From Minisyncoccota bacterium (lineage in GTDB: Bacteria; Patescibacteriota; Minisyncoccia; Phycocordibacterales; UBA2100), in the NCBI GenBank assembly GCA_035500505.1, contig DATJXE010000004.1, positions 50,230-114,229 of the forward strand: a DNA stretch of 64,000 nucleotides, written 5' to 3'. Each line of letters starts with the position of its first letter. The first letter of the stretch is position 1. This document shows, in pieces, positions 19,165 through 39,881 of this stretch. The translations under genes were made by a program, and so were the position numbers. Below the pieces are notes generated by a model, which worked only from the letters and a program-made list of their open reading frames with translations, was not told where the DNA came from and made no database searches.

Positions 19165-21123
19165 CTAGGCCCCTAGTTCCTGAAGCTTTTCAAGGTACTT
19201 GAGCACGGTGTGCGCGTAGGTCGCGTGGGCCCAGGTCAGGGGACTTGCGCAGACCTCCTCGCCAGTTTGTGGATTGAGCTGCTCTGAAAGGACGCCGGAG
19301 CTTGCCGCGTGGCGGCTCACCCACGAAAAGATGTCGCGCGCGCGGTCGAGGTCGTGCGGATTCCTCGCGTTGGCGATGAGGTATTCGGCGTACCAAAGGG
19401 TCGTGATGATCCAGGGGTTGCCTGTCGAAGGCCCGGGAACACGGTAGTAATCGTCGTTCTCGAAGCGGGCGATGCCTCCCGTCTGGATGCCTTCGCTCAG
19501 GCGCCGCACCGTTTCGTCCCAGGCGCGCGAAAGGCGAACGTCGTCGGCCGGCAGAACGCCGAACGAAAAGACGCCATAGACGCTCGCAATGTTCACCGTG
19601 CGGTCGACCGATACCTCGCCTTCCTTGCGCAGTATCATGTCGAGAAAAAGTCCGGCGCCCTCGTCCCACAGGTGCGTGAGGATGGCATCGCGGACTTCAC
19701 GCGCGGCTTCCCTGTAACGGGCCTCGTTCTCGCTCTTGCCGAGTATTTTGGAGAGGTCGGCGGCCGCGACGAGCCCCCCGTAGACCGTGCATGAGGTGTA
19801 GGTCGACGTGCCGCGCTTGCGCTCCCAGAGATCGTAGGACGGCTGGGGCAATTTCGTTTCGGGATCGCGATAGTCCACAAGAAAGTTCGCCGCCTTCTCG
19901 ACGAGCGGGTTGTACATGTCTTCCAGAAATTCAAGATCGCGGCTCCGTTTGTAATGCTCGCGCATCGCCCACACGACGAGCGCGGTCTCATCTTCTTGGA
20001 TGGGCAATTGGAACTGTCCGTTCTGTATCCACGGATGCCAGGAAGAGCCGAGCGATTTGTCGGGCAGATACTTGTGCATGAAGTAGCCTTCGTCGGTGAT
20101 GGTGTCGCGGCAGAATTCAAAAAAACGCTTCGCGACGTTGGTGTCGCCCGCGTGGTCGAGCGCAGCCGCAGTGTACGCGCTGTCTCTTGGCCAAACATAG
20201 GAATACGTATCGAGGCCGTACTGGAGCATGTCGGAGTCGACGGAGGCGATGATGCCGCCGCCCTGGTCGACGTGCGCGCGCACGTACATGAGAGAGCGTT
20301 TGAAGAGCGCGATGTGTTCGGGCGAGAGGTTCTTGAAATCCCATTCGTATGCATTGACCCACGCCTTCCAGAAATCGCTCGCCGTTTGGATGAGATGTTC
20401 GGGGGTCTTTTTGAGGATGTACCGGCTCAATTCCTGCGCCTCGTGGATGGACTTCCCTGCCGCTATCCAGTAGTAGCAGGTCTTCGATTGTCCTGCCGCG
20501 TAGGCGCTGTAGAGCCCAATGACGGAGTCAGCGGGGCCGTGTTCTATCGGATTTTTGCTCAAAACGCCGTCCTCTGCGTCCTTGTGCGTTCCCTCCTTGC
20601 CCTGGAAATTATCGCGACCGGTCGCGTAGTCGTCGAACGGCGTCCCTTCCAGGGTTCCCCCCATGAGAAAGACGCGCTGCCCCTTGTAGTGGATGATTGA
20701 ATGCGTGATGGGGTCGAAATAGGCGGTGTCGGAGCCGTGGGATTTGTATATCTCGAACTGGTGGGCGAAATAGAGCTTCACATCCCGCGCGGCGCCCTGA
20801 TTCGTGACCTTGATGCGCCGCAGAAAAATGGGTTGCTCGTTGTAGACGATGTCGGTAAAGGACAATTCCACCTGCAAGCGCGGATGTCGCGCGACGATGG
20901 CGGAAGCGAGCGCCTCTTCTTCGCACGAAACAGTGACGTCCCACGCCGGATCGTCGGAAAGCCAGCTCAATTGCCCGTCGACCCAAATGCCGATGCGGTG
21001 GATGTAGTGCCCTCGCACGTGATCTTCGAGCCCAACATGCGGATAGTAGATGTCGCGCACGGACGCTTTGTTATCCAGCGCCACGCACAACCCGCCGTTG
21101 GAAAGAACAATGGAGCGTGACAT
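19165..21123 (-). CDS. glycoside hydrolase family 15 (glucoamylase/trehalase-like)
   Basis: 652 aa. An N-terminal beta-sandwich precedes an (alpha/alpha)6 catalytic domain with the WPRDSAYTAAAL motif typical of GH15. Confidence 0.75.
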   Translation of the reverse strand: MSRSIVLSNGGLCVALDNKASVRDIYYPHVGLEDHVRGHYIHRIGIWVDGQLSWLSDDPAWDVTVSCEEEALASAIVARHPRLQVELSFTDIVYNEQPIFLRRIKVTNQGAARDVKLYFAHQFEIYKSHGSDTAYFDPITHSIIHYKGQRVFLMGGTLEGTPFDDYATGRDNFQGKEGTHKDAEDGVLSKNPIEHGPADSVIGLYSAYAAGQSKTCYYWIAAGKSIHEAQELSRYILKKTPEHLIQTASDFWKAWVNAYEWDFKNLSPEHIALFKRSLMYVRAHVDQGGGIIASVDSDMLQYGLDTYSYVWPRDSAYTAAALDHAGDTNVAKRFFEFCRDTITDEGYFMHKYLPDKSLGSSWHPWIQNGQFQLPIQEDETALVVWAMREHYKRSRDLEFLEDMYNPLVEKAANFLVDYRDPETKLPQPSYDLWERKRGTSTYTSCTVYGGLVAAADLSKILGKSENEARYREAAREVRDAILTHLWDEGAGLFLDMILRKEGEVSVDRTVNIASVYGVFSFGVLPADDVRLSRAWDETVRRLSEGIQTGGIARFENDDYYRVPGPSTGNPWIITTLWYAEYLIANARNPHDLDRARDIFSWVSRHAASSGVLSEQLNPQTGEEVCASPLTWAHATYAHTVLKYLEKLQELGA

Positions 21124-21127
21124 ATGG

Positions 21128-22348
21128 TCAGCCGGCGCGCTTGTCGAGACGAAGTTTGAGGTCCTGCAGCGCGTTCATGTAGGCGATGTGCGCGTCGTAG
21201 GGCGATTCGTAAGGAGAGAAATACGCGTGAACATCGCCGTCGTTGAACCATTTCGTGCACATGTAGTAGAAGTGGTCGGAGGTCTGCAGGCGACGCCAGT
21301 CTTCGAGCAACTTCAGATCGTTGGCGAGCAGTATCTTTTCTTCGAGCTCATAGATCGCCTCGAGCGCGGCGCGCTGCATCGGGTTCCCCGTCCACGCCGT
21401 GAGGTCGCGGTCGGTGTCGGCCCATGTTACGGCGTGCGGCATGTCCACTTCGTCGCGCGCGTCGTAGGACGCGATGACTTCTGATGGTGTTTTGAAATCG
21501 ATACCGGGATTCTTGGCGAGTTCTTCGGGCAACTTTTCCAAAAAGTGGAAGATGCCGGTGTCTTCCCACTGGTGCTCGCCGAACGTTTCGTAATCCATGA
21601 AAAGATTCACGACGTCCCCTTCCGCGACCCCGAGCCACTGCGCGAATTTCTCCGCCGTGAGCGGCCACTCGCTCCACGAGCGCGACGAAAATCGGAATGC
21701 AACGTCGTCGGAGAGGCGGTAATTTTTCAAAAGCAGTCTGGCGTTCTGCGAGCCTTTTGGTTTGTACACGTAATTCGGACTCCTCCAACCGAGTATCGGG
21801 TCCCACCCTTCCGCGAGCACTCCTGCATAGCCGTTTTTGTCCGCCCACTCGCCAAGGTCGTTGCGATACGAAAGTTCGGTGTTACGAAAAACGCGCGGCC
21901 ACACGCCGAAGAGCCGGCGAATGGTCTCGCGGTGTTTTCCAACCTGGCGCTCGAATTCCGACGGCGAGTAGAAGAACGCGAGCGAGTGGTAGTAGGTCTC
22001 CCCCAAGATCTCTACCCTGCCTGTGTTGACGAGCTCCTTGAAAAGTCCGATGACCTCCGGCACATACTGCTCGAGTTGCTCCAGAGCGACCCCCGAGAAG
22101 GAGAACGAAACTCGCATTTCCGGGTGCCGTTTGAGAAGCTCTATCAGGAGCTTGGTCGCCGGAATATAGCTCTTTTGAGCCACTTTTTGGACGATGCGGC
22201 GATTGTTTAGGTTGCCTTCACCGCGATCGTTGAAGTATTCGGCGTCATTGCCAATATCAAATACGCGATAGTTCTTTACCCGATAGGGCTGGTGTATTTG
22301 GAAATAGAAACATACCGATTTCATACGGTTCTTTCGCTCATTGTACAC
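21128..22348 (-). CDS. glycoside hydrolase family 57 (alpha-amylase / alpha-glucanotransferase-like)
   Basis: GH57 region-I motif FYFQIHQPYR. ~400 aa. The start is 22348 or 22324. Confidence 0.75.
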   Translation of the reverse strand: MYNERKNRMKSVCFYFQIHQPYRVKNYRVFDIGNDAEYFNDRGEGNLNNRRIVQKVAQKSYIPATKLLIELLKRHPEMRVSFSFSGVALEQLEQYVPEVIGLFKELVNTGRVEILGETYYHSLAFFYSPSEFERQVGKHRETIRRLFGVWPRVFRNTELSYRNDLGEWADKNGYAGVLAEGWDPILGWRSPNYVYKPKGSQNARLLLKNYRLSDDVAFRFSSRSWSEWPLTAEKFAQWLGVAEGDVVNLFMDYETFGEHQWEDTGIFHFLEKLPEELAKNPGIDFKTPSEVIASYDARDEVDMPHAVTWADTDRDLTAWTGNPMQRAALEAIYELEEKILLANDLKLLEDWRRLQTSDHFYYMCTKWFNDGDVHAYFSPYESPYDAHIAYMNALQDLKLRLDKRAG

Positions 22349-23558
22349 CTGAAAGGAGCGTTTCTTGCAGCACGTTCTCCACTTTTCCGGCCGCGTCCTC
22401 CCAGGTGAGGTTCGCGACCTCGCGGCGGCCGTTCTCGGAGAGCGATTGTCGGAGTCCCTTGTGCCTGACGACGCCCAATATCTTGTTGGTCATCTCGTCG
22501 ACGTCCCAAAAATCGACTTTGAGCGCGTGCTTGACCGCCTCCGCCACACCCGACTGTTTTGAAACGAGCACGGGCGCGCCGGTCTTCATCGCTTCGAGCG
22601 CCGTGATGCCGAACGGTTCCGAGACGGAGGGCATGATGAAGAGATCCGCGGCGGCGTACACTTCGTGCCGGTCCGAGCCGGAGAGGAATCCCGTAAACAG
22701 CACGCGGTCGGAAATGCCGAGCTGCGCGGCGAGGTCCATCATTTGCCGTTCCATGTCGCCGGAACCGGACAAGAGGAAGACGACTTTCGGGTCGCGCATG
22801 AGGACCGACTTGGCGGCGCGCAAAAAATAATCCGGTCCCTTTTGGAGCGTGATGCGTCCGAGAAAGAGCACGATGGAGTAGCCGGATGCCTTGAGCGACG
22901 ACAGTCGCAAACGGCTCGCGGCACCGTGCGGCTGCGTCGCCTCGTCGATGCCGTTGTGAATGACTTTTATTTTCCAATCCGGAATGCCGTAGTGACGAGT
23001 GATGATGTCCTTGGTGTACTGCGAGACCGCGATGACGCGATCGGCCGCTTCCATCCCCTCTTTTTCTATGTCGTACACGTCTTTGTTGACGCCCAACGGG
23101 CCGCCACAGCGATCGAACTCGGTCGCGTGCACGTGCACGATGAGCGGTTTGCCGGAAACTCTCTTCGCTTCGACGCCCGCGCCGAACGAAAGCCAGTCGT
23201 GCGCGTAGATGACATCGAATTGCTCTTCTTTCGCTATCTGACCGCCGAGGAGCGCGTAGCGGCGCACCTCACTCAAGAGATCGCGGCCGTAGATACCGAT
23301 GTCGTGCAACGCACGCGCGTAGCCATTGCCCGTAACATAGGGCTTCAGGGTCGAGTTGACGACGCGAGTCTCAAGTTCCGTATCCGCAAACACGAAACGC
23401 GCCCAAGACGCGTTGACGTCGAGCTTCTTTGGCATCACGAAGATGATGTCGATGCCCCGCGCCGCCATAGCCCGCGTGAGTCCTTGGCAGGCGACCCCTA
23501 AACCCCCGCTATTGTGAGGCGGGAATTCCCATCCGAACATCAAGACGCGGGTTTTCAT
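22338..23558 (-). CDS. archaeal-type glycogen/alpha-glucan synthase (GT4/GT5 glycosyltransferase)
   Basis: N-terminus MKTRVLMFGWEFPPHNSGGLGVA (EFxP..GGL as in archaeal glycogen synthases). A C-terminal GT1_B/GT4 Rossmann domain is present. Confidence 0.7.
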   Translation of the reverse strand: MKTRVLMFGWEFPPHNSGGLGVACQGLTRAMAARGIDIIFVMPKKLDVNASWARFVFADTELETRVVNSTLKPYVTGNGYARALHDIGIYGRDLLSEVRRYALLGGQIAKEEQFDVIYAHDWLSFGAGVEAKRVSGKPLIVHVHATEFDRCGGPLGVNKDVYDIEKEGMEAADRVIAVSQYTKDIITRHYGIPDWKIKVIHNGIDEATQPHGAASRLRLSSLKASGYSIVLFLGRITLQKGPDYFLRAAKSVLMRDPKVVFLLSGSGDMERQMMDLAAQLGISDRVLFTGFLSGSDRHEVYAAADLFIMPSVSEPFGITALEAMKTGAPVLVSKQSGVAEAVKHALKVDFWDVDEMTNKILGVVRHKGLRQSLSENGRREVANLTWEDAAGKVENVLQETLLSGVQ

Positions 23559-23675
23559 CCGATAAAAGTGACCGTATTGTCAATAGTACCACGTTCTGTG
23601 GATAATTCTGTGGAGAAATGTGTGGAAAAGCCTTACTTTTCGCCCAAAAGGCGACATTCGTGCTACCCTCTAACG

Positions 23676-24437
23676 ATGGAATGCCCGAAAGTGGCCCTTT
23701 TTGACCTCGACAACACCCTGGCGGAGCCATTTCGACCCGTTTCGGATGCGATAGCGGAGGCCTTTGGGCGCCTGATAACGACTCTTCCCATCTCGATCAT
23801 GACGGCGGCAAGTCTGGAACGCATACAGGTGGAAGTCCTCTCCCGGCTTTCCGGCGACACCGACTTCTCTCGCCTGACCCTGTTCACCTCGAATGCGGGC
23901 CAATCGTTCGCGTTCGACGTCGACCACTGGCAGGAGCAATACCACTTTGAATTTACGGACGCGCAGCTCCAGCAAATACGTGCCGCGATAGAGGAAGCGA
24001 TTCGCGAGACCAACGCGCTTGCGAACACGAAGGTGTATGGCGAGCAGTTCATCGATTACCGAGGTTACTTCGCGTTCACCGCGCTCGGCATCGGCGCGCC
24101 TGTCGCGGAGCGCAGAGCTTGGGACCCGGATTTTTCGAGACGCCGAAAGCTTCAGGCAACCGTCGCGCGGAAACTTCCGGAATTCGACGTGTACATTGGC
24201 GGTTCCACTTCAATTGACGTGACCTTGAAAGGTATCAGCAAAGCGTACGGCATCGAATGGCTCTCGAAACGCCTGAATATGGCGCCTGCCGACATGCTCT
24301 ACGTCGGCGACGCGCTCTACGAAGGCGGGAACGATTTCGTGGTCATCAAAACCGGCGTCCGGACGAAAGCGACGAGCGGGCCGGAAGAGACCCTCGGTAT
24401 CATCAACCAACTCATCGCCGCGTGCGCGGTGAAATGA
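23676..24437 (+). CDS. HAD-superfamily subfamily IIB phosphatase (sugar-phosphate phosphatase-like)
   Basis: Start MECPKVALFDLDNTL (motif I DxD) and a C-terminal GDALYEGGNDF (motif IV). A Cof/PMM-like cap is present. Confidence 0.65.
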   Translation: MECPKVALFDLDNTLAEPFRPVSDAIAEAFGRLITTLPISIMTAASLERIQVEVLSRLSGDTDFSRLTLFTSNAGQSFAFDVDHWQEQYHFEFTDAQLQQIRAAIEEAIRETNALANTKVYGEQFIDYRGYFAFTALGIGAPVAERRAWDPDFSRRRKLQATVARKLPEFDVYIGGSTSIDVTLKGISKAYGIEWLSKRLNMAPADMLYVGDALYEGGNDFVVIKTGVRTKATSGPEETLGIINQLIAACAVK

Positions 24438-24492
24438 GAAGCGGCGACCATTCGGTCGCCGCTTCTTTCCCCTTTCGGTTACGTAAGACGGT

Positions 24493-25260
24493 TTATCGTC
24501 TGCGGGCCCAGTACCAGTATCCGCCGCCCAGGATGATCAGGACGAGGACGAGCCACCAGTACCACGCGACTCCGGCAAGTCCCGCCGCAGCGGCCTGATT
24601 CGATGCCGAGTTGTTGGTCGCCGCGACCTCCGGCGCGGCTACTGCCGCGGTCTGATCTGAAGTGAATACATTGTCGTTCGTGCTGCTCGAGCTGTTCACC
24701 GCAGCCGTGTTCGTGTTCGAAGATTGTGTCGTCGCGACCGTCGTTTTCTTCGTGGTCGAGGCGGTCGTCGGGGTCGTCGCCGGCTTCGGAGCCGTCACCG
24801 TTATCGAGAGCGAGCCCTGGGTCCCGGAAACTTCGTTCGTGTTGTTCTGATCGAGCAAGACGGACGCGTTGGTCGCCGAGACGGTCGCCGTGCCCGGCGC
24901 GACAGCCGTGAACGTGATGGTGCCGAGCGCCGTCGGCGCGGTGAAGCCGCCCGGATACCCGCCGGTCTTCACGAGCGCGCCGCCCGTGTTGTCGGTCGAG
25001 TTATACGAGCTCTGCGTCACCGGCATCCAGTTGGTCGCGAACGTGAAGTTCGTCACCTGAAGAACACCCGGCGTGAACGAAAGGTGCGCGCTCGCCGTGT
25101 AGATGGCCGAGCTCCCCGGGGTGGCGATGACCTGCACGGTCACTGTCTGGCCGGTCGTTACGGATGTCTGCGAGGACGTCAGCTGGAAGGACGCCGCGAG
25201 CGCGAGCGAGGGCAGCATCAGAGCCGCCGTCGCGAGAAGAGTCGTTGTTATTTTGTTCAT
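24493..25260 (-). CDS. secreted cohesin-domain protein with Ser/Thr-rich linker and C-terminal TM anchor
   Basis: A signal peptide is followed by a ~130-aa cohesin-like beta-sandwich (IATPGSSAIYTASAHLSFTPGVLQV). A TTPTTASTTKKTT linker and a C-terminal hydrophobic helix plus RRR follow. Confidence 0.55.
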   Translation of the reverse strand: MNKITTTLLATAALMLPSLALAASFQLTSSQTSVTTGQTVTVQVIATPGSSAIYTASAHLSFTPGVLQVTNFTFATNWMPVTQSSYNSTDNTGGALVKTGGYPGGFTAPTALGTITFTAVAPGTATVSATNASVLLDQNNTNEVSGTQGSLSITVTAPKPATTPTTASTTKKTTVATTQSSNTNTAAVNSSSSTNDNVFTSDQTAAVAAPEVAATNNSASNQAAAAGLAGVAWYWWLVLVLIILGGGYWYWARRR

Positions 25261-25261
25261 A

Positions 25262-28200
25262 CTAAGAGGTCCAGTGGACCATGAAGCTGTTAAAGTCGAT
25301 AAGGTCTACCGTGCCGTCGCTGTTGAAGTCGCCCGGGACGCTGAACCCTGTCTTCCCGAAGTTGGTCATCAGGAGGTTGAAGTCGAGGAGATCCACCTTG
25401 CCGTCCTTGTTGAGGTCGTACTGCGAATACGTGCTGATCGAACCGCCACCGCCTCCCCCGCCTGGGCTGCCACCTCCGCTCGAAGGTGCGGGAGCGCTTT
25501 CAGTGATGACGCTCACCTCTGCCCCAGCCGTCTCAGGCGAGCCGTGCGAGATGGGGCGGAAGTAGTACGTTGTGCCGGACGAGAGTCCGCTGATGGTTAC
25601 CGAGTGGCTCGTGACCATCGGCGAGTCGTCGGTCTCGACGGTCGTGTTGGGGTAGCCGTAGTTGTCGTCACCGCCCGCTTTCGCCTCGGTCGAGGAAGCG
25701 TCGGAAACCGAGCTCGTGCCCCACACGACGCGGCTCGAAGCCGGGTGCGAGGTTGTCCACGTGATGGTGACGCTGTCATCCGTCGGGCTCACGCCCTGCT
25801 CCGCCGAGAGCGCGAGGTCGGAGACGATGACGGTGCGGGTTGCTTGCGTTGCAATATTCCCTGCTGCGTCGGTCGCGTCGTACGTGATCGTGTACGTACC
25901 CGCCACTGCCGGGTCGGGAACCGTATCACCGCCGACAACTACCACGACTGACGAATCTACGTTGTCGGTCGCAGTTGTTCCCGGATCGACGAATGTTGAA
26001 CCGGTCGGGATGTGCATCGTAGCATCACCGTTAAGCGTGATAACAGGAGCTTCAAGGTCTTTAACGTTGACCGTGCGTGTTACTGGTGTCGCCACGTTGC
26101 CTGCTGCGTCGGTGGCGGTGTAGGTAACGGTGTAGCTGCCGAGCGTGCCTACGTCGACTGCGCTCGTGTCAGCATTGACCGCCACGCTGGTGTCGACGTT
26201 GTCGCTCGCTGTGGCACCGAGGTCAACGTACGGAGTGTTGATGTTGATGTCGGTCGGGTTCGCACCAGTGACCGTGATAACCGGTGCGGTTGTGTCGATG
26301 AGAAGTGTCGTATTCACCGTTGCCGTGTTCGTCAGAGGGTCGGTCGCCGTCACCACGACTGGAAGGTCGCCTTCAGGAAGTGCGTCAGGGATCGTCACAC
26401 TCCAGGAACCATCGCCCGCGACAGTGGCCGGGTAATCAGTGCCATTTACGTGGACATTTATTGTCGCATCGGCATCGGTCGTACCACTGATGGTCGGCGT
26501 GTTCGGTGTCGTCGGGGCGACCGTGAGGCTCGGCGCGTTGTGGTCGTACGTCACAGAGAACTGCGCCGCGGCGGTGTTCTCATTGTCGGCCGCATCGGTC
26601 GCGGCTCCTGCGGCGATATCAGCCGTTACATCAAGGGGGCCGTCATTGTCCGGAGTGATAGTGAAGGTGTAGTGGGAGCCGTCAACCGCAGTGAAGTCGC
26701 CCAGTGTGCCGTTCGCTACGACCACGTCCGAGGAATCAAACCCCGTAACGTCTTCTGAGAAGACGACGCTGACTGGGATCGGCGACGCGTTCGTCGGGCT
26801 TGATACTGTCGAAGACATCGCGACACTCGGGTCAGTCTTGTCGATGCTGAAGGACAGCGATTGTGTGCTGTTGTTCCCTACATCGTCGGTCGCCGATATG
26901 TCGAAGGAATGCGAGCCTTCAGAGAAACCTGAGACGTCTATCGGCGAGGATGGGCACGCTGCGGGTGTGCCGCCGTCGAAATCGCACTCGACATCGGACG
27001 CGCCGGTAACGTCGTAGACCACCTGCGCGCCCCCGACGGTCGCGGCGTTGAGCACATCACTCGGCTGTACGGAAGCAGTAATGACAGGCGCATCGGCGTC
27101 AACATCGAACGAGTTCGAAGTTACTGAAGTCGTGTTGTTGCCCTGGTCGGTAGCGCTGACGGTCACTGTGTGCGAACCAGTCGAAAGTGTGGGGGCGAAA
27201 GTCGTGCCACTCGTGCACGGGCCAGGTGTTTGGTCATCGACTGCGCAAGTGAGCGTCAATGGTGTCGCATCCGTGGCACTAAAGGTAATCGTCGGGTTCG
27301 CATTCGTCGGACCGTTTACTGGATCGATCGTTACCGACGGTGCAACGGTGTCCTGTACGGTGACCGTGCGGGTCGTTGTGGTCGCGTTGCCGCTCAAATC
27401 TTGAGCGTTGTACGTAACGGTGTAATCCCCTACCGCCCCGGTGTTGACGGACGTCGCAGAGTCGTTTGTTGCGACAAGTCCGGTGTCGTAGTTGTCAGTG
27501 ACGGTCGTCCCTGGATCGGTATACGTCGCACCAGCTTCGATGACGTACGGGTTGTCGCCGATGAGTGTGATCGAAGGTTCCTGGGTGTCGACCACGTGTA
27601 CGGTGCGTGTCACCTGAAGAGCCGCGTTGCTGCTTGAGTCGGAGACATCGTACGTGACTGTGTAGTCGCCTATGACTGCCGTGTTGACCGGATTGTTAGT
27701 GACGATCGAAGCCGTAAGGTCGCCGTCGTAGTTGTCCGAAGCCGTCGCACCAGCGTCGGTGTAGGTCGAACCAACCTCAAGCGTCACGTTAGCGTCGCCG
27801 AGGAGCGTGATGACAGGTTTTGTCGTATCAACGACGTGCACCGTTCGGCTAGTCGAAGTCGAGTTGAGCGCGGAGTCTTCAGAAGTGTATGTAACGACAT
27901 ACGTTCCCAAGTGTTCGCTGTCGACGGTGTCACCTCCAATGACAACCGAGGAGGTGAGGTCTCCATCAACTGCGTCTATGGACGAGTAGCCGGGCTCAAC
28001 GAACGGCGTGTGAACTTCGAGCGTGAGCGGGTTGTCGCCGGAGAGAGTGATGACCGGAGCTGTGTCCTGTACCGTCACCGTGAACGTGGTCGGGGTCGCG
28101 TTGTTGGCACTCGAGTCGGGACCGGCGTTGCAGGTCACTACTGTATCGCCGATCGAGAAGGGTGAGCCTGAAGTCGGAGTGCAGTTGGCGACGAGCGTGT

Positions 28201-31102
28201 CGATGTTGTCGGTCACCGTCGGAAGGTCATAGCTAACGTTGGCACCAGCTGCGGAAGTCGCCGGGGCTGAGACGTCGGCGTGAGCAGCAATGACCGGCGC
28301 TGAGTCGTAAACGCCGACATCAAAGTGTGCGGAAGAAGAGTTGCCCACCGCATCGGTAGCGGTGCAATTGACGGTCGTCGTCCCGAGGGCGAAGGGTGAG
28401 CCCGATGCGGGAGTGCAGACTGGAATTACTGTGCCATCGACATTATCCATTGCTGTGACAGTGAAGTTGACCGGCGTAGTCGGCAGTGCTGTTGCGACCA
28501 CGGAAACGGACGTGGGCGCGGTAATAACCGGCGGCGTCAAGTCTGGGAACACACACGGAGCGTGATTCAAGACTTGTGAGACAGTGAGCACGCAGGCCCC
28601 ATTTTGTGCGAGGTAATTCACCGTGTCTTGCAGTGTTGCCGGAGTTTCCGCGTAAACGTCGTTATCGTTTGCGGGGTTCGCCTCTATTTGGTGGAAGACC
28701 AAAATAAGCCACAGTTTGTTCACGAGTGCGGTGTGTATCCAGGCCTCTATGGTTGACGTAGGTGTCGAAGAATCGAGATCCTCGACGACGAGACGATACG
28801 GGTCGGTATTTTTCGTGTTGAAGCCTTCGTCTATGGTGCGCGCAGCCGAGAAACCGCCAGCCGCAACCTGTGCTGTGCTCGTACTATTGAAGGAGCCAAA
28901 GGGATACGCAAGATTGTCATCGGGTGAAATTCCCATTGCCTGCATTTCAATCTTTGAGTTCGTTATTTCCGCTTGTGAGGTCGTGGCCGCAGAAAGCGCG
29001 TGATCGGGGCAACCAACTCCGGGGTTCCCCTGAGGGCCTGTTACGAGTGCGGAATTAGGATCGGCCTGGAGTGCGACCAGGTCGCAGTGGTCGGCGGTGT
29101 GGGACGCTATATCGTGACCGGCCGCTTGCATCTCAAGCACTTGGGCCGGTGACATGTAGATGTAGGAAGAATCCGGAGCGACGTACGACGTGTAGTTCAA
29201 CGTGTCGTTCGGAATAATGTAGAACGTCCCGTGCATTGCACCTCCGGGAGCGTTCTTGAGAGTGGAAGAGGCGTTGTACTGGTCGAGATAGCCGTCGTCG
29301 AAAGTGAGTGAGACCATACCGTTGTCGTACTGACCACTTGTCACACCTTCGCTCAAGGAAGCGTCGTCCACCGTCAGGGAACCGCCGACGGTGTCAAGAA
29401 GTTGGAACACGCTCGCCTGCACTGCACCGGGCGGCGGCGAGATGACTGCGGAAAAGGTCGAAAAGCTCCCCGGAGAAGGTTTTACTGAAGAGGAGACGAC
29501 TTCGTAGCAGTCGACATGGCTCGGATCCCCTTGGATGGCCGAACATTCACTTGAGATCGAATTCGCCGAGTTGACGATGTACTCAACGTCAACCTCAGTG
29601 TCGACGTTGGACATATACTTGTCGCTGAACGTGTAGATCTGACCCGACGTGACCGTCACAGGACTCGGGCTCCACTGTATTTGTCCTGTGCCGCCGGTCA
29701 TGTGTACTTCGGCCGCCTTCGTGCCGGAGTAGTACGAAGCAGCGGGGTAAGTTCCCCCACCGACTACACTTGAATCTTTGTAGAAGTTCCAGTTGTCCGG
29801 GCCACCAACACTGCCGTTGAACGGCGTGGTACTGGTCTCGAAGCATGGGTTCGCGAAGAGGTCATTGCCCGCATTGAGCGCACAGGGAACGCCAGGCAAG
29901 TTGTACGTGACGGTGTTGTCCGTCGCTGTAGAAGCAAGGTTGGCATTGTTGGATGCATCGTGTGCCATCCCCGCCGCGATGCTCGGGATGACCGTACCAC
30001 TCGAAGTCATACCCGAAACCGCGACACTGTACGTCGTGCCAGTGCCGGTGACGACGGCGGTCGTCGCGCCAGCGGTGCCGGAAAGCGTCACGTCGCCTGT
30101 CGCGAAGTCAGTTACTGGTGCACTAAAGACAACAGTGAAATCGATCGGTGAGTCTCCCGTCGGGTCTGATTGTCCCGCTGACTGATTGATGGTGACCGTC
30201 AGTGCAGGAGGATTGACTACCACTGCGTTGTTAAGGGTGAACGTATTGCTCGGAAGTTCTCCTGATTCGTTGGTGCAGTTCTGGCCGCTGTATGCGACAA
30301 GGTAGAGACTGTAGGTTCCGGTCGATGCTGGAGTCGTAATGTTGAAGTTCCCAGTCAGGCCCGTTTGTGCCCCGATCGTCGAACTAGGATTGTTCGTGCA
30401 GGAGGCCGTACCGACGCCATTAGTCGAGAGGAGCCAACTTGTAGACTGCCAGTCGTTGTCATTACCGCTCGAACCGATCGTATTGCCGGTGACGGTCGCA
30501 GCAATCGTCGCGCTCGGCGTAGTAGTGGTACTCGTCCCACCACCGACTGTTGCGGCCGTAATCGAACGAGTCGGATTTTGAACCAAAACCGATGGACTGA
30601 TTGCAATGTTTGAAGGGGACCCACCGCTGCCGTCATGTGTGGCTGTAGTGAACGTAGCAGTTCCCGTCGTACTTTGAACGGTCACCGACTGACCGACGCC
30701 GTACGTAACAGTAATATGATCGTTCTGGCCACAAGTTTGGGCGATGGTGATTTGTTGACCGCTGAAAGTTGGCGTTCCGGGGCTGCAAGTGTTAGTACCG
30801 CTTCCGGACCCTACCGCAACGGATACGTTAGAAGAATTCGGTGCAGTCCATCCCGAGGGAATAGTTATTCGTACATACGAACCATTTGAGAACTGCGATG
30901 AACTGTTCTGAGAAAAGTCGATGGTGAATGTCTGGTGGTTCGCTCCTGCAGCAACAGGTGAAGGTGTAATGGAGGCAGCGCCATTCCCCGATGCCGCCGC
31001 CAACGCGGTCGCAGGCACACTGATAAACAAGAGCGAGAGCGCTCCGGAAACGGCGAACGTGGCGATGCGGCTTTTTACCGCACCGATAGTAGTGGTACTC
31101 AT
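25262..31102 (-). CDS. giant secreted surface protein: CE4 polysaccharide deacetylase domain, many Ig-like (DUF5011/HYR-like) repeats, Gly-rich linker, C-terminal type-I dockerin
   Basis: 1,947 aa from MSTTTIGAV (signal peptide). The NodB motifs TFDDGY...HTADH are present. There are more than 10 repeats of ~85 aa containing DNVDS/DNYDG. The C-terminus carries DLNKDGKVDLLDFNLL...DFNSDGTVDLIDFNSF (two dockerin Ca-binding repeats). Its stop abuts the cohesin gene start. Confidence 0.7.
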   Translation of the reverse strand: MSTTTIGAVKSRIATFAVSGALSLLFISVPATALAAASGNGAASITPSPVAAGANHQTFTIDFSQNSSSQFSNGSYVRITIPSGWTAPNSSNVSVAVGSGSGTNTCSPGTPTFSGQQITIAQTCGQNDHITVTYGVGQSVTVQSTTGTATFTTATHDGSGGSPSNIAISPSVLVQNPTRSITAATVGGGTSTTTTPSATIAATVTGNTIGSSGNDNDWQSTSWLLSTNGVGTASCTNNPSSTIGAQTGLTGNFNITTPASTGTYSLYLVAYSGQNCTNESGELPSNTFTLNNAVVVNPPALTVTINQSAGQSDPTGDSPIDFTVVFSAPVTDFATGDVTLSGTAGATTAVVTGTGTTYSVAVSGMTSSGTVIPSIAAGMAHDASNNANLASTATDNTVTYNLPGVPCALNAGNDLFANPCFETSTTPFNGSVGGPDNWNFYKDSSVVGGGTYPAASYYSGTKAAEVHMTGGTGQIQWSPSPVTVTSGQIYTFSDKYMSNVDTEVDVEYIVNSANSISSECSAIQGDPSHVDCYEVVSSSVKPSPGSFSTFSAVISPPPGAVQASVFQLLDTVGGSLTVDDASLSEGVTSGQYDNGMVSLTFDDGYLDQYNASSTLKNAPGGAMHGTFYIIPNDTLNYTSYVAPDSSYIYMSPAQVLEMQAAGHDIASHTADHCDLVALQADPNSALVTGPQGNPGVGCPDHALSAATTSQAEITNSKIEMQAMGISPDDNLAYPFGSFNSTSTAQVAAGGFSAARTIDEGFNTKNTDPYRLVVEDLDSSTPTSTIEAWIHTALVNKLWLILVFHQIEANPANDNDVYAETPATLQDTVNYLAQNGACVLTVSQVLNHAPCVFPDLTPPVITAPTSVSVVATALPTTPVNFTVTAMDNVDGTVIPVCTPASGSPFALGTTTVNCTATDAVGNSSSAHFDVGVYDSAPVIAAHADVSAPATSAAGANVSYDLPTVTDNIDTLVANCTPTSGSPFSIGDTVVTCNAGPDSSANNATPTTFTVTVQDTAPVITLSGDNPLTLEVHTPFVEPGYSSIDAVDGDLTSSVVIGGDTVDSEHLGTYVVTYTSEDSALNSTSTSRTVHVVDTTKPVITLLGDANVTLEVGSTYTDAGATASDNYDGDLTASIVTNNPVNTAVIGDYTVTYDVSDSSSNAALQVTRTVHVVDTQEPSITLIGDNPYVIEAGATYTDPGTTVTDNYDTGLVATNDSATSVNTGAVGDYTVTYNAQDLSGNATTTTRTVTVQDTVAPSVTIDPVNGPTNANPTITFSATDATPLTLTCAVDDQTPGPCTSGTTFAPTLSTGSHTVTVSATDQGNNTTSVTSNSFDVDADAPVITASVQPSDVLNAATVGGAQVVYDVTGASDVECDFDGGTPAACPSSPIDVSGFSEGSHSFDISATDDVGNNSTQSLSFSIDKTDPSVAMSSTVSSPTNASPIPVSVVFSEDVTGFDSSDVVVANGTLGDFTAVDGSHYTFTITPDNDGPLDVTADIAAGAATDAADNENTAAAQFSVTYDHNAPSLTVAPTTPNTPTISGTTDADATINVHVNGTDYPATVAGDGSWSVTIPDALPEGDLPVVVTATDPLTNTATVNTTLLIDTTAPVITVTGANPTDININTPYVDLGATASDNVDTSVAVNADTSAVDVGTLGSYTVTYTATDAAGNVATPVTRTVNVKDLEAPVITLNGDATMHIPTGSTFVDPGTTATDNVDSSVVVVVGGDTVPDPAVAGTYTITYDATDAAGNIATQATRTVIVSDLALSAEQGVSPTDDSVTITWTTSHPASSRVVWGTSSVSDASSTEAKAGGDDNYGYPNTTVETDDSPMVTSHSVTISGLSSGTTYYFRPISHGSPETAGAEVSVITESAPAPSSGGGSPGGGGGGGSISTYSQYDLNKDGKVDLLDFNLLMTNFGKTGFSVPGDFNSDGTVDLIDFNSFMVHWTS

Positions 31103-31643
31103 ATCCCTGGGGGACGTGTTATGGCTAATGATTAATAACCAAAGCGAAAACACGCAGTTCCCAGGCCGCGAGGTGACCAAAAGCTGGGCGCATCCTACTA
31201 CAGGCCCGTATGCCGTAACAAGTTGACACTAAGTCAAACGCCTGCTACGTTGCAGGCGTTGCGAGTTCCTTTCTAAGGAACTTTTTTCTTTTATATAAGC
31301 CGCGTAAGGGCGCGAGAAGGGCCCGAACACTCCAGCCTTCGGCTGGTTCCCAGAGTTTTGGGCCCTTCCCACTCCCCTACATTCAACTCGGAAAAGCCAT
31401 GCCCGCCCTTTTCAGAGCGGCGCGCACGTGTCCTTATTATACAAGTCGCAACCCGCGGATATCTCCTTTATCCACAGGTCGTAATCCCCTGAAAAAACCT
31501 TGAAGTTCTGATGAGGGGGCATACAATCAATGCAACTACGAGCGTGCGCGCACGTAGAACATAATGGGAACCAGCCAAGCCATCTATGGCTACGGCTTTT
31601 TCTTTATTACATTCCCGACTCGGCAACGCATAACTTCTTGCGT

Positions 31644-34163
31644 ATGCCGATTTTTTTAGACACATCGAAACGGCGCAAGCTGTTCATCCGCGTCTTCGCC
31701 GTCACGTTCGCGTCCATCACTTTCTTGGGTCTTGTGTTCCTCGCAGTCAGCGTCTTTTTCGAAAGCCCGCAGCGCCCCGCGCTCACCTACGCCGAAGCCG
31801 CGGATTCGTATCACTACTACTACAGCTCCGCCAACGATCACAAGATCGCGATCACTTTCAACGACGGCCCGCAGCCGGGTATTTCGCAATCCCTGATGGC
31901 GACGCTTGAGAAAGACAACGCGCCGGCGACCTTCTTCTATATCGGCGAGAATGTTTTCATGCACCCCAACATCGTCCACGAGGCGGCGACGGAAGGATTC
32001 ACTATCGGCAATCAGTCCTTCACCGGCTCCGACAACGTCGAGTCTTCGGCCACACGGCTCTCGCTCGAACTGCACGCGACCGAATTCCTGATATCGCGCA
32101 TCACCGGCGCGTCGTCGTTCTTTTATCGGCCGCCATACCTCCTTGGCGTGGGCACCGACCCGACCATGAATCCCTACCTTCCGCCCTCACAGGACATTTT
32201 GTGGGCCATGGAGAACGGTTACAACCCCGTCGGCGCCGACATCGACCCCAACGATTGGAAGGCCGACACAAAAGAGGACGTTGAGTCGGGCGTCATCGCC
32301 GCACTCAAGAGTTCCCCCAACGGGCACATCCTGCTTCTGCACGAGCGGCCCCAGACCGCGGAAGCGATGGATGCGATAGTCCAGACCATCCGTAAGAGCG
32401 GCTACACCATCGTGCCGCTTTCCGAACTTCTCACGCCGCCCGCGCAGCTCGCGCTCACACAACCGCTCCAGCAGGGCGATACCGACGCGACGACCGAGGG
32501 CCAGGTGTCGCAATTGCAGTGGTTCCTCTACAAAGACGGCGACCTCGACCCGTACCTCATCACCGGCACGTTCGGCTCCCTCACTCGCACGGCGCTCATA
32601 CGCTTCCAATTGAAGAGCAACATCCTCAACGGCGGTTCCGCATCGGCTGGCGCAGGCATCGCCGACGCCGCGACGCGAAAAGCCATCGAGAGCCGCTCGG
32701 TCGCCGTCTTGCAGCACAACGCGCTCTTCAATGCGCCCGTTCTTCATCCCTTCGCGTTCACGTGGATAGGACAACTCTTCGCCTTCGCCTACATCAACCT
32801 CTTCCCCGCCCTGCACGACGGCCTCTCTGCCATCATGTGGCTCGCCCTCTTCATCGTGCTCATACGCTGCGCCGCCCTCTTGGGACTTCTCGCGTGGGCG
32901 AAACGACAGGAGCGGCTGGCCAAGATCGGCGACCCGGAAGACATGGGAGAAGGGATCTCGGTGCTCATTCCCGCGTACAACGAAGAAGAGAACATCCGCG
33001 CGACGATAGAAAGCGTGTTGCACTCCAACTACCAGCCCAAAGAGGTCATCGTCATCGACGACGGCTCGACCGACGGGACCGGCGGCGTCGTGCGCGAAGC
33101 CATGGCGGCGCATCCGGACGAACCCATCAGGCTTCTGCAAGTCGAGAACGGCGGAAAAGCGAGCGCGCTCAACCACGGACTCGAAGCGGCGCAGTTCAAC
33201 ATCTGCGCGGTGCTCGATGCCGACGCGGTCATCGAGGAAGGGACCCTTTCGTATTTCGCGCGACACTTCAAGGACGCCGAGGTGGGCGCTGTCGCGGGCA
33301 AGGTGTGTACGACCGCGAGCGCGCGCGTCCTCGACATGTTGCAGACGCTCGAATATGCGATAGGCCAGAACATCAACAAGCGCGCGCTTTCGACCATTGG
33401 CGCGATAGGCGTCGTGCCGGGACCTTCCGGCGCGTGGAACAAGCGATTCGTGCTCGAAGCCGGCGGTTTCAGCACCGACACCCTGGTCGAGGACCAGGAC
33501 ATGACGCTCACGCTCCTACGCGCCGGCAGGAAGGTCGTCTACGAAGAGAAAGCCGTCGCCTACACGGAAACGCCGCACACCGTGAAGAACTTTCTCAAAC
33601 AGCGATTCCGCTGGGTCTACGGCACGCTGCAATGCTTCTGGAAACACAAGCGCGTCGTCATCGAGCACCCGCTTTCGAGCATGAGCCTCATCGTGCTGCC
33701 CAACATCATCGTGTTCAACACCCTGCTGCCGCTCACCTATCCTTTCTCCGATCTTTCGCTCGTCATCGGCCTCCTCGTGAGCGACTGGCACGGTCTCGTC
33801 CTGCCGTTCCTGCTCTTCACCGCGTTCGACGTTTCGTACGCGGCGGTCGGGGTTTGGCGCGAGAAAGACCGCGTGCGGATGCTCGCCTATGTCCCCTTGC
33901 AGCGTTTCGTGTACCGCCAGCTGCTCTATTACACGGTCATGCGGGGCCTCATCCGCGCGCTCGAAGGCACGGGCTCGGGCTGGAACAAGTTCTCGAAGAT
34001 CGGCGAGACGCAGCGTTTCTACTTCTCCGCCCTCGGCGAGAGCCCCGAGCCCGTGTTGGATTTTCTCCCGTCATTTTCGCCCCTCCCGGACTTGTCGACG
34101 TCGTCGTCTCCGAGCACGTCGGGGATGCTCTCGCTTTCGGAAAGCAGCGACTTACAAACGTAG
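31644..34163 (+). CDS. fusion protein: CE4 (NodB-like) deacetylase, peptidoglycan-binding domain, processive family-2 glycosyltransferase (NodC/PgaC-like)
   Basis: An N-terminal TM helix is followed by ITFNDGP (NodB motif) and a PG_binding_1-like segment (LQWFLYKDGDLDPYLITGTFGSLTRTAL). The GT2 domain has LIPAYNEE, DDGSTDGT, DAD and the QRFRW processive-synthase motif. Multiple C-terminal TM helices follow. Confidence 0.75.
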   Translation: MPIFLDTSKRRKLFIRVFAVTFASITFLGLVFLAVSVFFESPQRPALTYAEAADSYHYYYSSANDHKIAITFNDGPQPGISQSLMATLEKDNAPATFFYIGENVFMHPNIVHEAATEGFTIGNQSFTGSDNVESSATRLSLELHATEFLISRITGASSFFYRPPYLLGVGTDPTMNPYLPPSQDILWAMENGYNPVGADIDPNDWKADTKEDVESGVIAALKSSPNGHILLLHERPQTAEAMDAIVQTIRKSGYTIVPLSELLTPPAQLALTQPLQQGDTDATTEGQVSQLQWFLYKDGDLDPYLITGTFGSLTRTALIRFQLKSNILNGGSASAGAGIADAATRKAIESRSVAVLQHNALFNAPVLHPFAFTWIGQLFAFAYINLFPALHDGLSAIMWLALFIVLIRCAALLGLLAWAKRQERLAKIGDPEDMGEGISVLIPAYNEEENIRATIESVLHSNYQPKEVIVIDDGSTDGTGGVVREAMAAHPDEPIRLLQVENGGKASALNHGLEAAQFNICAVLDADAVIEEGTLSYFARHFKDAEVGAVAGKVCTTASARVLDMLQTLEYAIGQNINKRALSTIGAIGVVPGPSGAWNKRFVLEAGGFSTDTLVEDQDMTLTLLRAGRKVVYEEKAVAYTETPHTVKNFLKQRFRWVYGTLQCFWKHKRVVIEHPLSSMSLIVLPNIIVFNTLLPLTYPFSDLSLVIGLLVSDWHGLVLPFLLFTAFDVSYAAVGVWREKDRVRMLAYVPLQRFVYRQLLYYTVMRGLIRALEGTGSGWNKFSKIGETQRFYFSALGESPEPVLDFLPSFSPLPDLSTSSSPSTSGMLSLSESSDLQT

Positions 34164-39500: not shown

Positions 39501-39881
39501 GAACTGAGATTCGAAGTGGGCCTGGAGCGGTCCGCTTGGGAAACCGCCCAAATCGGCGTTGCTCTCCCCTGCCGCATTAGTTAGCGGCGGGGCAAACGTC
39601 TGGTCACCAAAACTGCCGCTGGTTACTGCGTTGGATATGCGAAGGCTTTGGGTCGCAAAACTCGCGGGGGCACCAGAGATCGTTGAATTATCGGAAACCG
39701 CGACATCATAAGCGCCCGTCATCGACCAACCATTTTGGCCGTTTATATTGCCAACGGTGTAAGTAGGAGCGGAAGGCTCAAAAGTAATAGGGCCAATCGT
39801 GTCTGCGGACGCTAGCGCCGGAAGAATAAGGAGCGCCGAGGAGATGATGGCTGAGGCGATAAGATATTTATTCGTTTTCAT
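36537..39881 (-). CDS. large secreted surface protein with C-terminal SdrD-B/Cna-B-type repeats and Gly/Asn-rich tail
   Basis: 1,114 aa with a signal peptide. Two C-terminal ~110-aa repeats (G.KY.D.DGDG..D.GE.GL.GVTI.L....G......TTT...G.Y.F..L..GTY) are present. The protein ends with GNNGFGNFGNNGYGGNDH. Confidence 0.65.
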   Translation of the reverse strand: MKTNKYLIASAIISSALLILPALASADTIGPITFEPSAPTYTVGNINGQNGWSMTGAYDVAVSDNSTISGAPASFATQSLRISNAVTSGSFGDQTFAPPLTNAAGESNADLGGFPSGPLQAHFESQFDIYAIPDSIGDVMSVSPDRGDGARMSYLRFDSEADGIHVYFDDVTDPTHSNNEDTFNESQIALLSSGVPHTVKFSMDFYDGPDNDVVNIYIDDHLMATGTSWEDYYLYDSESNPGFSNDHSRAVRTMLFRAGGAAVPANLDKGFLIDNLTLASGPIPASSPSECTPINLVSDTSTFTGGWTNGTNVKGGVAVTNDASGLNPLNYTDTGNFVTSMLANLSPTGFTLVPGPWTDPSSGSFAGSGAAWISDIAASPGDSGGEGAGTEDQWRLFQKDFNVPAGATVSPITIYYTADNAVSVYFNGVWIGDTNPDLDTYAATPGSLPSVFGNTYSATFTPVAGQTNTLSFVVRNSSYPGSVNPTGLLYSAQGQYCFAPPPPQDGAVHIFKFVDGVQATTASVGSVSFPMFTATYNAPFTLGPGGWNPATPDVDYEASTNVIPANSTYTANEDTTTSLVGPGPECDGVHPYVLVGYSTGSTLQDAENASQSSTPPTVTINGNQYIIVWNKSCTVTPPATLKVHIEKYLDGKPATAESASNYIFPMTATWQTANLNGGAQTSGPYTLGTGWGGATGYFADTAPMQAPADYVTSEITSDIDPSSQVVPSIESCSPGKYYFDGYSTSPMSFDDAATAATTTTPIQFSQITTDQYVIVWNDFCPTTATLTITKETNGGNGSGTYNFTSDIPNHPSFSITTTNHSGSVTFDDVAPGIYNVTEVNLPKGWTETDNSCTALPVAAGDNINCIITNTSNKLLGSIRGTKYEDRDGDGTLKDGDHHKLSGVTIFLDANNNGQLDNGETSLTTNKQGFYDFTGLVAGTYHVCEVVPSGWTQTYPKTGGGCYTVTLSAGQNAKKKDFGNFKPGTISGMKYNDANGNGRKDNGETGLEGWTIVLHGPHGQTQTTTTGSDGSFSFTGLAAGTYTLTEVSQTGWTQTQHPGSIKVQSGTNAKNENFGNTQHPKKGKGSDGDNDWDDNGHGNNGFGNFGNNGYGGNDH

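Follow-up and report, generated by a model that had tools for sequence, protein, structure and literature searches.

A predicted cohesin-dockerin surface-display cassette with a giant CE4 cargo protein in Patescibacteria

The DNA analyzed here (hereafter the window) is a 64 kb stretch of a Minisyncoccota bacterium genome (assembly GCA_035500505.1, contig DATJXE010000004.1, positions 50,230 to 114,229 of the forward strand). In the open reading frame (ORF) list of the window, two abutting genes lie on the minus strand. The upstream gene encodes a giant secreted protein that ends in a dockerin module, which we denote as the cargo, and the downstream gene encodes a small protein with a cohesin domain and a C-terminal membrane helix, which we denote as the anchor. 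The features of the gene pair are as follows.

25262..31102, minus strand: cargo gene, encoding a 1,946-aa secreted protein (ATG at 31102, stop codon TAG at 25262-25264; ORF list and translation)
30998..31102, minus strand: cargo signal peptide, residues 1-35 (...PATALA|AAS; read in the translation, cleavage site predicted)
29792..30997, minus strand: N-terminal beta-rich region of the cargo, residues 36-437 (weak Big_12 match, no family assignment)
29348..29791, minus strand: CBM4/CBM16-like beta-sandwich, residues 438-585 (CBM_4_9 at 19 bits, below threshold; AlphaFold and Foldseek)
28568..29317, minus strand: CE4/NodB polysaccharide deacetylase domain, residues 596-845 (PF01522)
25823..28546, minus strand: Ig-like stalk, residues 853-1760 (Pfam on the whole protein and on segments)
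25538..25783, minus strand: FN3-like domain, residues 1774-1855 (Pur_ac_phosph_N at 31.9-35.4 bits; fn3 weak)
25439..25483, minus strand: Gly-rich hinge SSGGGSPGGGGGGGS, residues 1874-1888 (translation)
25265..25438, minus strand: dockerin module, residues 1889-1946 (motif scan and PF00404)
25258..25264, minus strand: gene junction TAG-T-ATG, a 1-nt spacer into which a separate promoter cannot fit (sequence read)
24493..25260, minus strand: anchor gene, 255 aa (ATG at 25260, stop codon at 24493-24495; ORF list and translation)
25195..25260, minus strand: anchor signal peptide, residues 1-22 (...SLALA|AS; read in the translation, cleavage site predicted)
24790..25194, minus strand: cohesin domain, residues 23-157 (PF00963-positive homologues, AlphaFold model and Foldseek)
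24577..24789, minus strand: low-complexity T/A/S/N-rich linker, residues 158-228 (composition; putatively wall-spanning)
24496..24573, minus strand: C-terminal transmembrane helix, residues 230-252, and RRR tail (translation)

The reading frame of the cargo gene stays open upstream to a TTG at 31180, and the ATG at 31102 was taken as the start because a normal signal peptide results. Counted from this ATG to the stop codon, the cargo protein has 1,946 residues rather than the 1,947 given in an earlier note on this DNA, and the junction leaves 1 nt between the genes where that note had read a 2-nt gap. Both ORFs are present on the minus strand at the coordinates of the earlier note. Its description of two secreted proteins, the smaller one with a Ser/Thr linker and a C-terminal membrane helix, agrees with the translations, both of which open with a hydrophobic, signal-peptide-like segment.

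The anchor domain was identified through its homologues and its predicted structure. No Pfam family matched the 255-aa anchor protein at E ≤ 1, either as a whole or with the cohesin domain alone, so that the hidden Markov model (HMM) scan that had been set as the refutation test for this protein returned no direct cohesin match. An NCBIfam scan gave low-complexity noise and no relevant match, and neither the protein nor a 4-sequence profile retrieved more than chance matches from PDB sequences. A word-indexed search recovered three homologues at about 49-62% identity. Two of them (62% and 49% identity) scored 27.2 and 39.3 bits on the whole profile of PF00963 (cohesin), which has a curated cut-off of 24.1 bits, and one homologue is annotated as 'cohesin domain-containing protein [Candidatus Paceibacterota bacterium]'. 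Among the 118 scanned members of the anchor family, 64 matched PF00963 at E ≤ 0.01. An AlphaFold model of residues 23-160, based on a 118-sequence alignment, was all-beta with a predicted local distance difference test (pLDDT) score of 97.7, and its best 50 Foldseek matches in the PDB were all cohesins (E from 2e-8 to 7e-6, probability 1.00). Template modelling (TM) scores against solved cohesins were 0.6-0.79 (about 0.7) at sequence identities of 7-19%, and the matches spanned type I, type II, and the non-cellulosomal cohesins of Clostridium perfringens and Archaeoglobus fulgidus. Judged from the model and the homologous sequences, the fold of the anchor domain is that of a cohesin, a family characterized by a nine-stranded jelly-roll beta-sandwich, with a PF00963 membership that is transitive via homologues and not direct. 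We ascribe the missing direct match to HMM sensitivity that does not reach this clade, not to a wrong fold. The cohesin-like beta-sandwich of the earlier note is thus upheld by homologues and structure, though not by a direct Pfam or NCBIfam match.

The cargo protein ends in two 22-residue repeats, DLNKDGKVDLLD-FNLLMTNFGK and DFNSDGTVDLID-FNSFMVHWTS, which are identical to each other at 11 of 22 positions. Each repeat holds a Ca-binding loop (25382-25417 and 25295-25330, minus strand) followed by a DFNxxM helix. The loops fit the canonical DxNxDGxxDxxD pattern and form the sole such pair in the six frames of the window. PF00404 (dockerin type I), whose curated cut-off is 22.9 bits, matched the isolated 63-aa tail in two stretches at 34.0 bits and a 337-aa C-terminal segment at 28.4 bits. 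Many related cargo proteins likewise have a poly-Gly hinge ahead of the dockerin.

The anchor family is large, with 2,402 clusters at E ≤ 1e-3 and 206 at E ≤ 1e-30 in an exhaustive profile search. Nearly all members have a signal peptide, a cohesin, a linker, and a C-terminal membrane helix, and a C-terminal hydrophobic helix was found in 133 of the 137 representatives of 200-300 aa. A scan of GTDB genomes yielded 37 anchor-family loci, nearly all from Patescibacteria lineages (Paceibacterota, Minisyncoccia, Taylor-, Lipton-, Nealson-, Kaiser-, Nomura-, and Brennerbacteria, and Kazan). In all of the first homologue loci, the gene directly upstream has a poly-Gly hinge and a duplicated dockerin at its end, whatever its other domains, and an upstream dockerin gene was present in 32 of the 35 testable GTDB loci, with gaps of -53 to +45 nt. 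With 60 metagenome loci added to the GTDB loci, local HMMs found the dockerin-then-cohesin order in 82 of the 84 testable loci, corresponding to 73 unique pairs. Elsewhere in the 735 kb scanned, dockerin matches numbered only six: one tandem dockerin gene, three CE4-dockerin genes with a divergent cohesin-like anchor, one fusion, and a dockerin-ending ORF in locus L103, where a partial cohesin match is cut off at the locus end.

The exceptional loci show variations of the same arrangement. In a metagenome-assembled genome (MAG) of Candidatus Nealsonbacteria (L022:5131-7873, plus strand), two tandem dockerin-ending genes precede a single cohesin anchor gene, which hints that one socket could serve several cargo proteins. 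In a Candidatus Brennerbacteria MAG (L033:6573-8543, plus strand), dockerin and cohesin are fused in one 656-aa membrane-anchored protein, in the order FN3 repeats, poly-Gly, degenerate dockerin, cohesin, and membrane helix. A set of 153 collected proteins contained no natural fusion of this kind. In L042 (5650-6489), L043 (5043-5957), and L044 (5452-6356), the CE4-dockerin genes are followed by a more divergent cohesin-like anchor, and the helix pattern of their dockerins differs as well (DALDLSxxLTNWG / NIKDATLVSLNWG). The divergent anchor downstream of one CE4-dockerin gene scored 23.3 bits on PF00963, and that of L044 seems to be split in two ORFs (the domain; the linker and helix), possibly by a frameshift.

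The cargo proteins of sister cassettes range from 177 to 1,476 aa and have the dockerin tail as their sole common part. Their domains include CHB_HEX_C_1/Fn3_assoc, Ig-like domains, three subtilases, one CE4, and one Laminin_G_3, and many small proteins of unknown function also occur. The cassette looks widespread in Patescibacteria, and the window holds one copy of a very common cassette. It is apparently undescribed so far: the literature searched on cohesins and dockerins in the candidate phyla radiation (CPR)/Patescibacteria describes neither the cassette nor its phylum-wide gene order. The sole Patescibacteria dockerin mentioned there is SEML1_0315, an essential dockerin-domain protein of a cultivated Saccharibacterium (Southlakia), for which the authors speculated about host-glycan targeting (PMC10633639). 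We rejected SEML1_0315 as a copy of the same cassette, as its neighbors are an alpha/beta hydrolase gene and a tRNA, and a cohesin gene is absent. As a separate observation on cohesins, the very acidic protein P0045 (2,059 aa) has 15 matches to the cohesin profile of the anchor family and a PGF-CTERM-like tail (PGFAAASALIALFATALIARF), and looks like a haloarchaeal multi-cohesin scaffoldin.

Co-variation between the two modules was computed on 64 non-redundant dockerin-cohesin pairs. In each of the two repeats, dockerin helix positions 14 and 18 change in concert with positions 33/34, 114/115, and 120 of the cohesin (top z = 7.4 with average product correction, APC). Dockerins of the 'DFN...' class, to which the window belongs, pair with cohesins carrying T33, A/V34, L114, D/N115, and N120, and those of the 'DFV/I...A' class pair with cohesins carrying A33, E34, F114, E/Q115, and S/T120. 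The co-varying cohesin positions map to strand 3 (31-39) and the strand-8 region (112-114) of the AlphaFold model. In solved complexes, the dockerin-binding face of cohesins is made up of strands 8-3-6-5. The symmetry of the signal in both dockerin repeats fits a dual binding mode: the repeats are near-symmetrical at the predicted contacts, and either orientation may bind, as in type-I dockerins.

Taken with the modeled fold, these sequence patterns make it quite probable that the cargo dockerin docks into the anchor cohesin. The fuller reading, a two-gene surface-display cassette that combines a membrane cohesin socket and a dockerin-tailed giant CE4 cargo with a polymer made by the neighboring gene as the target, we regard as likely. 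In this model, the downstream gene would yield a type-I membrane protein after signal-peptide cleavage, holding one cohesin on a T/A/S/N-rich stalk of ~70 residues above the C-terminal membrane helix. The Ca2+-binding dockerin at the C-terminus of the cargo, on its poly-Gly hinge, would plug into this cohesin. The cargo would then be held at the cell by its C-terminus, with the Ig/FN3 stalk of at least 12 domains projecting the N-terminal region, the CBM4-like module, and the CE4 domain outward. Genes spaced by 1 nt hint at coupled translation, with plug and socket made in about equal quantity. The cohesin-dockerin pairing proposed in the earlier note is backed by the gene order, by the L033 fusion, and by the co-variation; physical binding, Ca2+ dependence, topology, stoichiometry, and substrate are the parts of the model that we infer.

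Several results weigh against direct docking. In the full-length cargo protein the dockerin scored 17.8 bits on PF00404, below the cut-off. The canonical duplicated type-I dockerin of the earlier note is borne out by its motif, and its score passes the cut-off in the isolated tail and in the C-terminal segment but not in the whole protein. A PDB sequence search with the dockerin ranked dockerins first, but at marginal scores and with troponin C and further EF-hand proteins among them, and the cohesin of the window had no direct HMM match. The co-variation is essentially one deep two-class split (42 versus 22 pairs), which common ancestry without contact could yield. The last three of these results would suit a situation in which the two proteins do not bind each other: the C-terminal module would act as an EF-hand-like Ca2+ stabilizer or bind a different partner, the anchor would be an Ig-like membrane protein with a role of its own, and their adjacency would reflect co-expression or a shared export route. 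We consider this quite improbable. The gene order is kept in 82 of 84 loci although the cargo proteins have just the dockerin in common, and dockerin matches are nearly absent elsewhere in the 735 kb. Both modules are fused in L033, and divergent CE4-dockerin genes precede a correspondingly divergent cohesin-like anchor. Furthermore, the fold of the anchor matches cohesins and nothing else, and cohesin modules characteristically bind dockerins.

How the anchor is retained at the cell also allows a second explanation, namely that its C-terminus is a sorting signal cleaved by a sortase-like enzyme, which would leave the cohesin covalently on the wall. The cohesin ScaE of Ruminococcus flavefaciens is attached to the wall in this way by sortase. 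ScaE resembles the anchor of the window in its single cohesin, its Gram-positive-type envelope, and its C-terminal hydrophobic segment with a basic tail, and the combination of a pre-helix motif, hydrophobic helix, and RRR tail in the anchor is likewise similar to a sorting signal. Within the 22 residues before the helix, the motif [LFIVM]G[TS]x occurs in 38 of 133 anchor representatives (e.g., ITFGTGS, ILTLGTKD), and another 24 of the 133 have an AAA(A/G) motif, as does the window (QAAAAG in NQAAAAGLAG, region 24496-24600, minus strand). A sortase gene lies ~3 kb from the cassette in L044/L045. However, the anchor of the window differs from ScaE in having no LPXTG-like motif ahead of the hydrophobic segment and in its cargo, and a motif-level scan found no TLxTC sortase signature in the plausible ORFs of the window. 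The candidate pre-helix motifs are also short and variable between subfamilies. Cleavage by a sortase-like enzyme therefore appears improbable, and we favor an anchor that would stay in the membrane by its helix.

Among known systems, a cellulosome was rejected, since a scaffoldin needs at least two cohesins and the cargo carries no plant-cell-wall glycoside hydrolase (GH). Local HMM scans found exactly one cohesin and one dockerin in the window, Pfam found no GH domain in the cargo, and sister cargo proteins are mostly non-GH. A closer likeness is to OlpA/OlpC of Clostridium thermocellum, whose complexes (3ul4, 4dh2) are among the fold matches and in which, as proposed for the window, one surface cohesin takes one dockerin enzyme directly. 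The cohesin of the window also has a type-I-like, all-beta topology, and no X-module stands beside the dockerin. However, OlpA/OlpC are anchored by S-layer homology (SLH) repeats and take plant-cell-wall hydrolases as cargo, whereas the window has a C-terminal membrane helix on an S/T-rich stalk and a CE4/Ig giant. The partner genes of the window are adjacent and apparently one-to-one, and the host belongs to Patescibacteria.

Cohesin and dockerin modules outside cellulosomes were reportedly surveyed by Peer et al. in 2009. The cohesins of C. perfringens toxin complexes (2vo8, 2jh2, 2w1n), their dockerin (2jnk/2ozn), and an A. fulgidus cohesin (2xdh) are among the best fold or sequence matches. 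The C. perfringens modules join secreted glycoside hydrolases to each other, whereas in the cassette the partner of the cargo would be a dedicated membrane anchor from the adjacent gene. The non-cellulolytic use suggested in the earlier note fits the single cohesin and the cargo without GH, but such use is already known in kind from C. perfringens and A. fulgidus. By analogy, the cassette may be viewed as a non-cellulosomal cohesin-dockerin pair that would work like the OlpA/OlpC or ScaE anchors, with a membrane-helix anchor.

The layout of the cargo protein was derived from Pfam scans of its full length and of ten segments that overlap one another. Residues 1-330 had no match at E ≤ 0.1, and the Big_12 match in residues 320-440 was weak (15.7 bits on the segment). 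The CE4 domain scored 47.6-52.4 bits on PF01522 in the whole protein and segments (cut-off 23.1), in line with the NodB-type deacetylase domain of the earlier note. Its key residues are D602 and D603 (TFDDG), H668 and H672 (HTADH), R755, and H804 (LVFH); across 90 CE4 homologues, H668, H672, R755, and H804 never vary and D602/D603 hardly do. The conserved Arg (R755) sits after the YPFG motif, not within it. By its HMM score, Asp-His-His metal triad, catalytic Asp and His, and conserved Arg, the domain is a member of the CE4 family.

Homologues of the unit formed by the carbohydrate-binding module (CBM) and the CE4 domain are common, the best being a Paceibacterota protein at 58% identity, and several also bear a dockerin; homologues of the CBM region carry PF02018. 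The AlphaFold model of the CBM-CE4 unit has a pLDDT of 94.4, and Foldseek matched it to CBM4-2/CBM16 modules, to Bacillus peptidoglycan deacetylases (6go1, 4hd5), and to PgaB, BpsB, and IcaB, the last three being among the closest deacetylase folds at 19-23% identity. A PDB sequence search with the CBM-CE4 segment gave nothing at E ≤ 0.001. The stalk comprises two HYR, five Bact_surface_Ig-like, one Big_13/PKD-like, one Big_12, one Big_13, and one InlK_D3 domain. In total, Pfam found at least 12 Ig/FN3-type domains in the cargo protein, extending the count of at least 10 Ig-like repeats in the earlier note.

As an observation in its own right, when the whole CBM-CE4 module (28568-29791, minus strand) was compared with known structures, the turret protein of Haloferax tailed virus 1 (8qpg_TA) came first, ahead of every bacterial CE4 enzyme, with E = 6.7e-17 over 438 aligned columns and a TM score of 0.49.

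The gene divergent from the cargo gene, across a 427-nt spacer, encodes a synthase with a glycosyltransferase family 2 (GT2) domain.

31530..34163, plus strand: fusion of CE4, PG_binding_1, and PgaC/IcaA-like GT2 synthase, 877 aa, with the CE4 domain N-terminal (Pfam, NCBIfam)

The best NCBIfam match of the synthase is PgaC_IcaA (TIGR03937), at 177.5 bits over positions 11-391 of 407, with an equivalog cut-off of 422.3 bits, and the CE4 domain of the cargo scored 19.4 bits on PgaB (TIGR03938), below the cut-off of 321.9 bits. Judged from these scores, the synthase and CE4 are predicted to work like the machinery of poly-N-acetylglucosamine (PNAG) but are not members of its equivalog families. 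A PgaC/IcaA-like GT2 gene adjoins all four CE4-dockerin loci examined (the window, L042, L043, and L044). Besides the window, these are the loci of three independent metagenome CE4-dockerin genes (P0223, P0251, and P0254), and the gene directly adjacent to each encodes a signal peptide, a beta domain, an S/T linker, and a membrane helix. The recurring trio of CE4-dockerin, anchor, and GT2 genes hints at a GlcNAc-type polymer (GlcNAc, N-acetylglucosamine) made next door as the substrate for deacetylation by the docked CE4.

The docked CE4 would then de-N-acetylate the GlcNAc-containing polymer of the neighboring synthase, following the logic of IcaA/IcaB and PgaC/PgaB with a cohesin-dockerin pair for surface retention. 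As in those systems, a processive GT2 synthase stands beside an extracellular CE4 deacetylase. In the window, by contrast, the synthase chain includes a CE4 and a PG-binding domain of its own, and a cohesin-dockerin pair would retain the deacetylase, which sits at the tip of a long Ig stalk. We put forward the polymer of the synthase as a possible substrate, at somewhat less than an even chance. Beyond the low equivalog score of the synthase, two points weigh against this assignment: because the synthase already carries a CE4 domain of its own, the docked CE4 may have a different substrate, and a CE4 held far from the cell by its long stalk would be no less suited to a target beyond the cell's own envelope.

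Such an outside target could be the wall of a host cell. With the docking unchanged, the CBM and CE4 head would act on host peptidoglycan GlcNAc or chitin, and the cargo would be an adhesin or wall-modifying enzyme of an episymbiont. The stalk, with its 12 or more domains, carries the CE4 and CBM at its far (N-terminal) end, and the fold matches of this head include the two Bacillus peptidoglycan deacetylases. Sister cargo proteins (subtilases, the lectin-like Laminin_G_3 protein, and Ig-rich proteins) look outward-acting. Hardly any members of the family come from outside Patescibacteria, a phylum whose lifestyle would suit this role. The essential Saccharibacterium dockerin protein with its speculated host glycans (PMC10633639) points the same way, but the gene is not followed by a cohesin gene and hence does not represent this cassette. 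Conservation of the synthase at all four CE4-dockerin loci points instead to an endogenous polymer, and the window contains nothing that identifies a host. Action on a host wall is therefore unlikely in our estimation, and the polymer of the neighboring synthase is retained as the candidate target.

Directly downstream of the anchor gene lies an alpha-glucan cluster (19165-24437) with GH15, GH57, GT4/GT5 starch-synthase-like, and HAD/PMM-like genes, of which the PMM-like and GT4/GT5 genes are syntenic in L002/L003, contigs of the closest relative. Promoter and terminator signals in 23400-31700 were no more numerous than after shuffling of the sequence. Between the divergent cargo and synthase genes, a perfect 9-bp hairpin is followed by a T-run (GAGTTCCTT-TCT-AAGGAACTT TTTTCTTTT; 31263-31283, plus strand). 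Farther away (36537-39881, minus strand), a second large secreted protein of 1,114 aa has SdrD_B and SpaA-type prealbumin-like domains and a Gly/Asn/Asp-rich C-terminal tail, without a dockerin or membrane helix.

Patescibacteria are ultra-small bacteria that account for a large part of bacterial diversity. Their lifestyle is one of attachment to other cells, and the construction of their surface is poorly understood. We tentatively propose, at not quite even confidence, that the cassette is part of a display system that extends across Patescibacteria (CPR), in which a single membrane cohesin would act as the universal socket for interchangeable dockerin-tagged cargo with at least two co-evolving specificity classes. 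It would be a main route by which these host-dependent cells, poor in cell wall, furnish their surface with the means to attach and feed. For the window itself, the finding connects a giant deacetylase with a PNAG-like synthase locus. To cohesin-dockerin biology, the cassette contributes some 2,400 clusters that form a large, divergent clade, in which the anchor is a membrane helix and most cargo is non-cellulolytic; many members of the clade escape current HMMs. If the proposal is true, the dockerin tail would provide a simple rule for finding surface-exposed proteins in any Patescibacteria genome, and the small, testable protein pair could serve as a natural scaffold for display in genetic work on the few members that can be cultivated.

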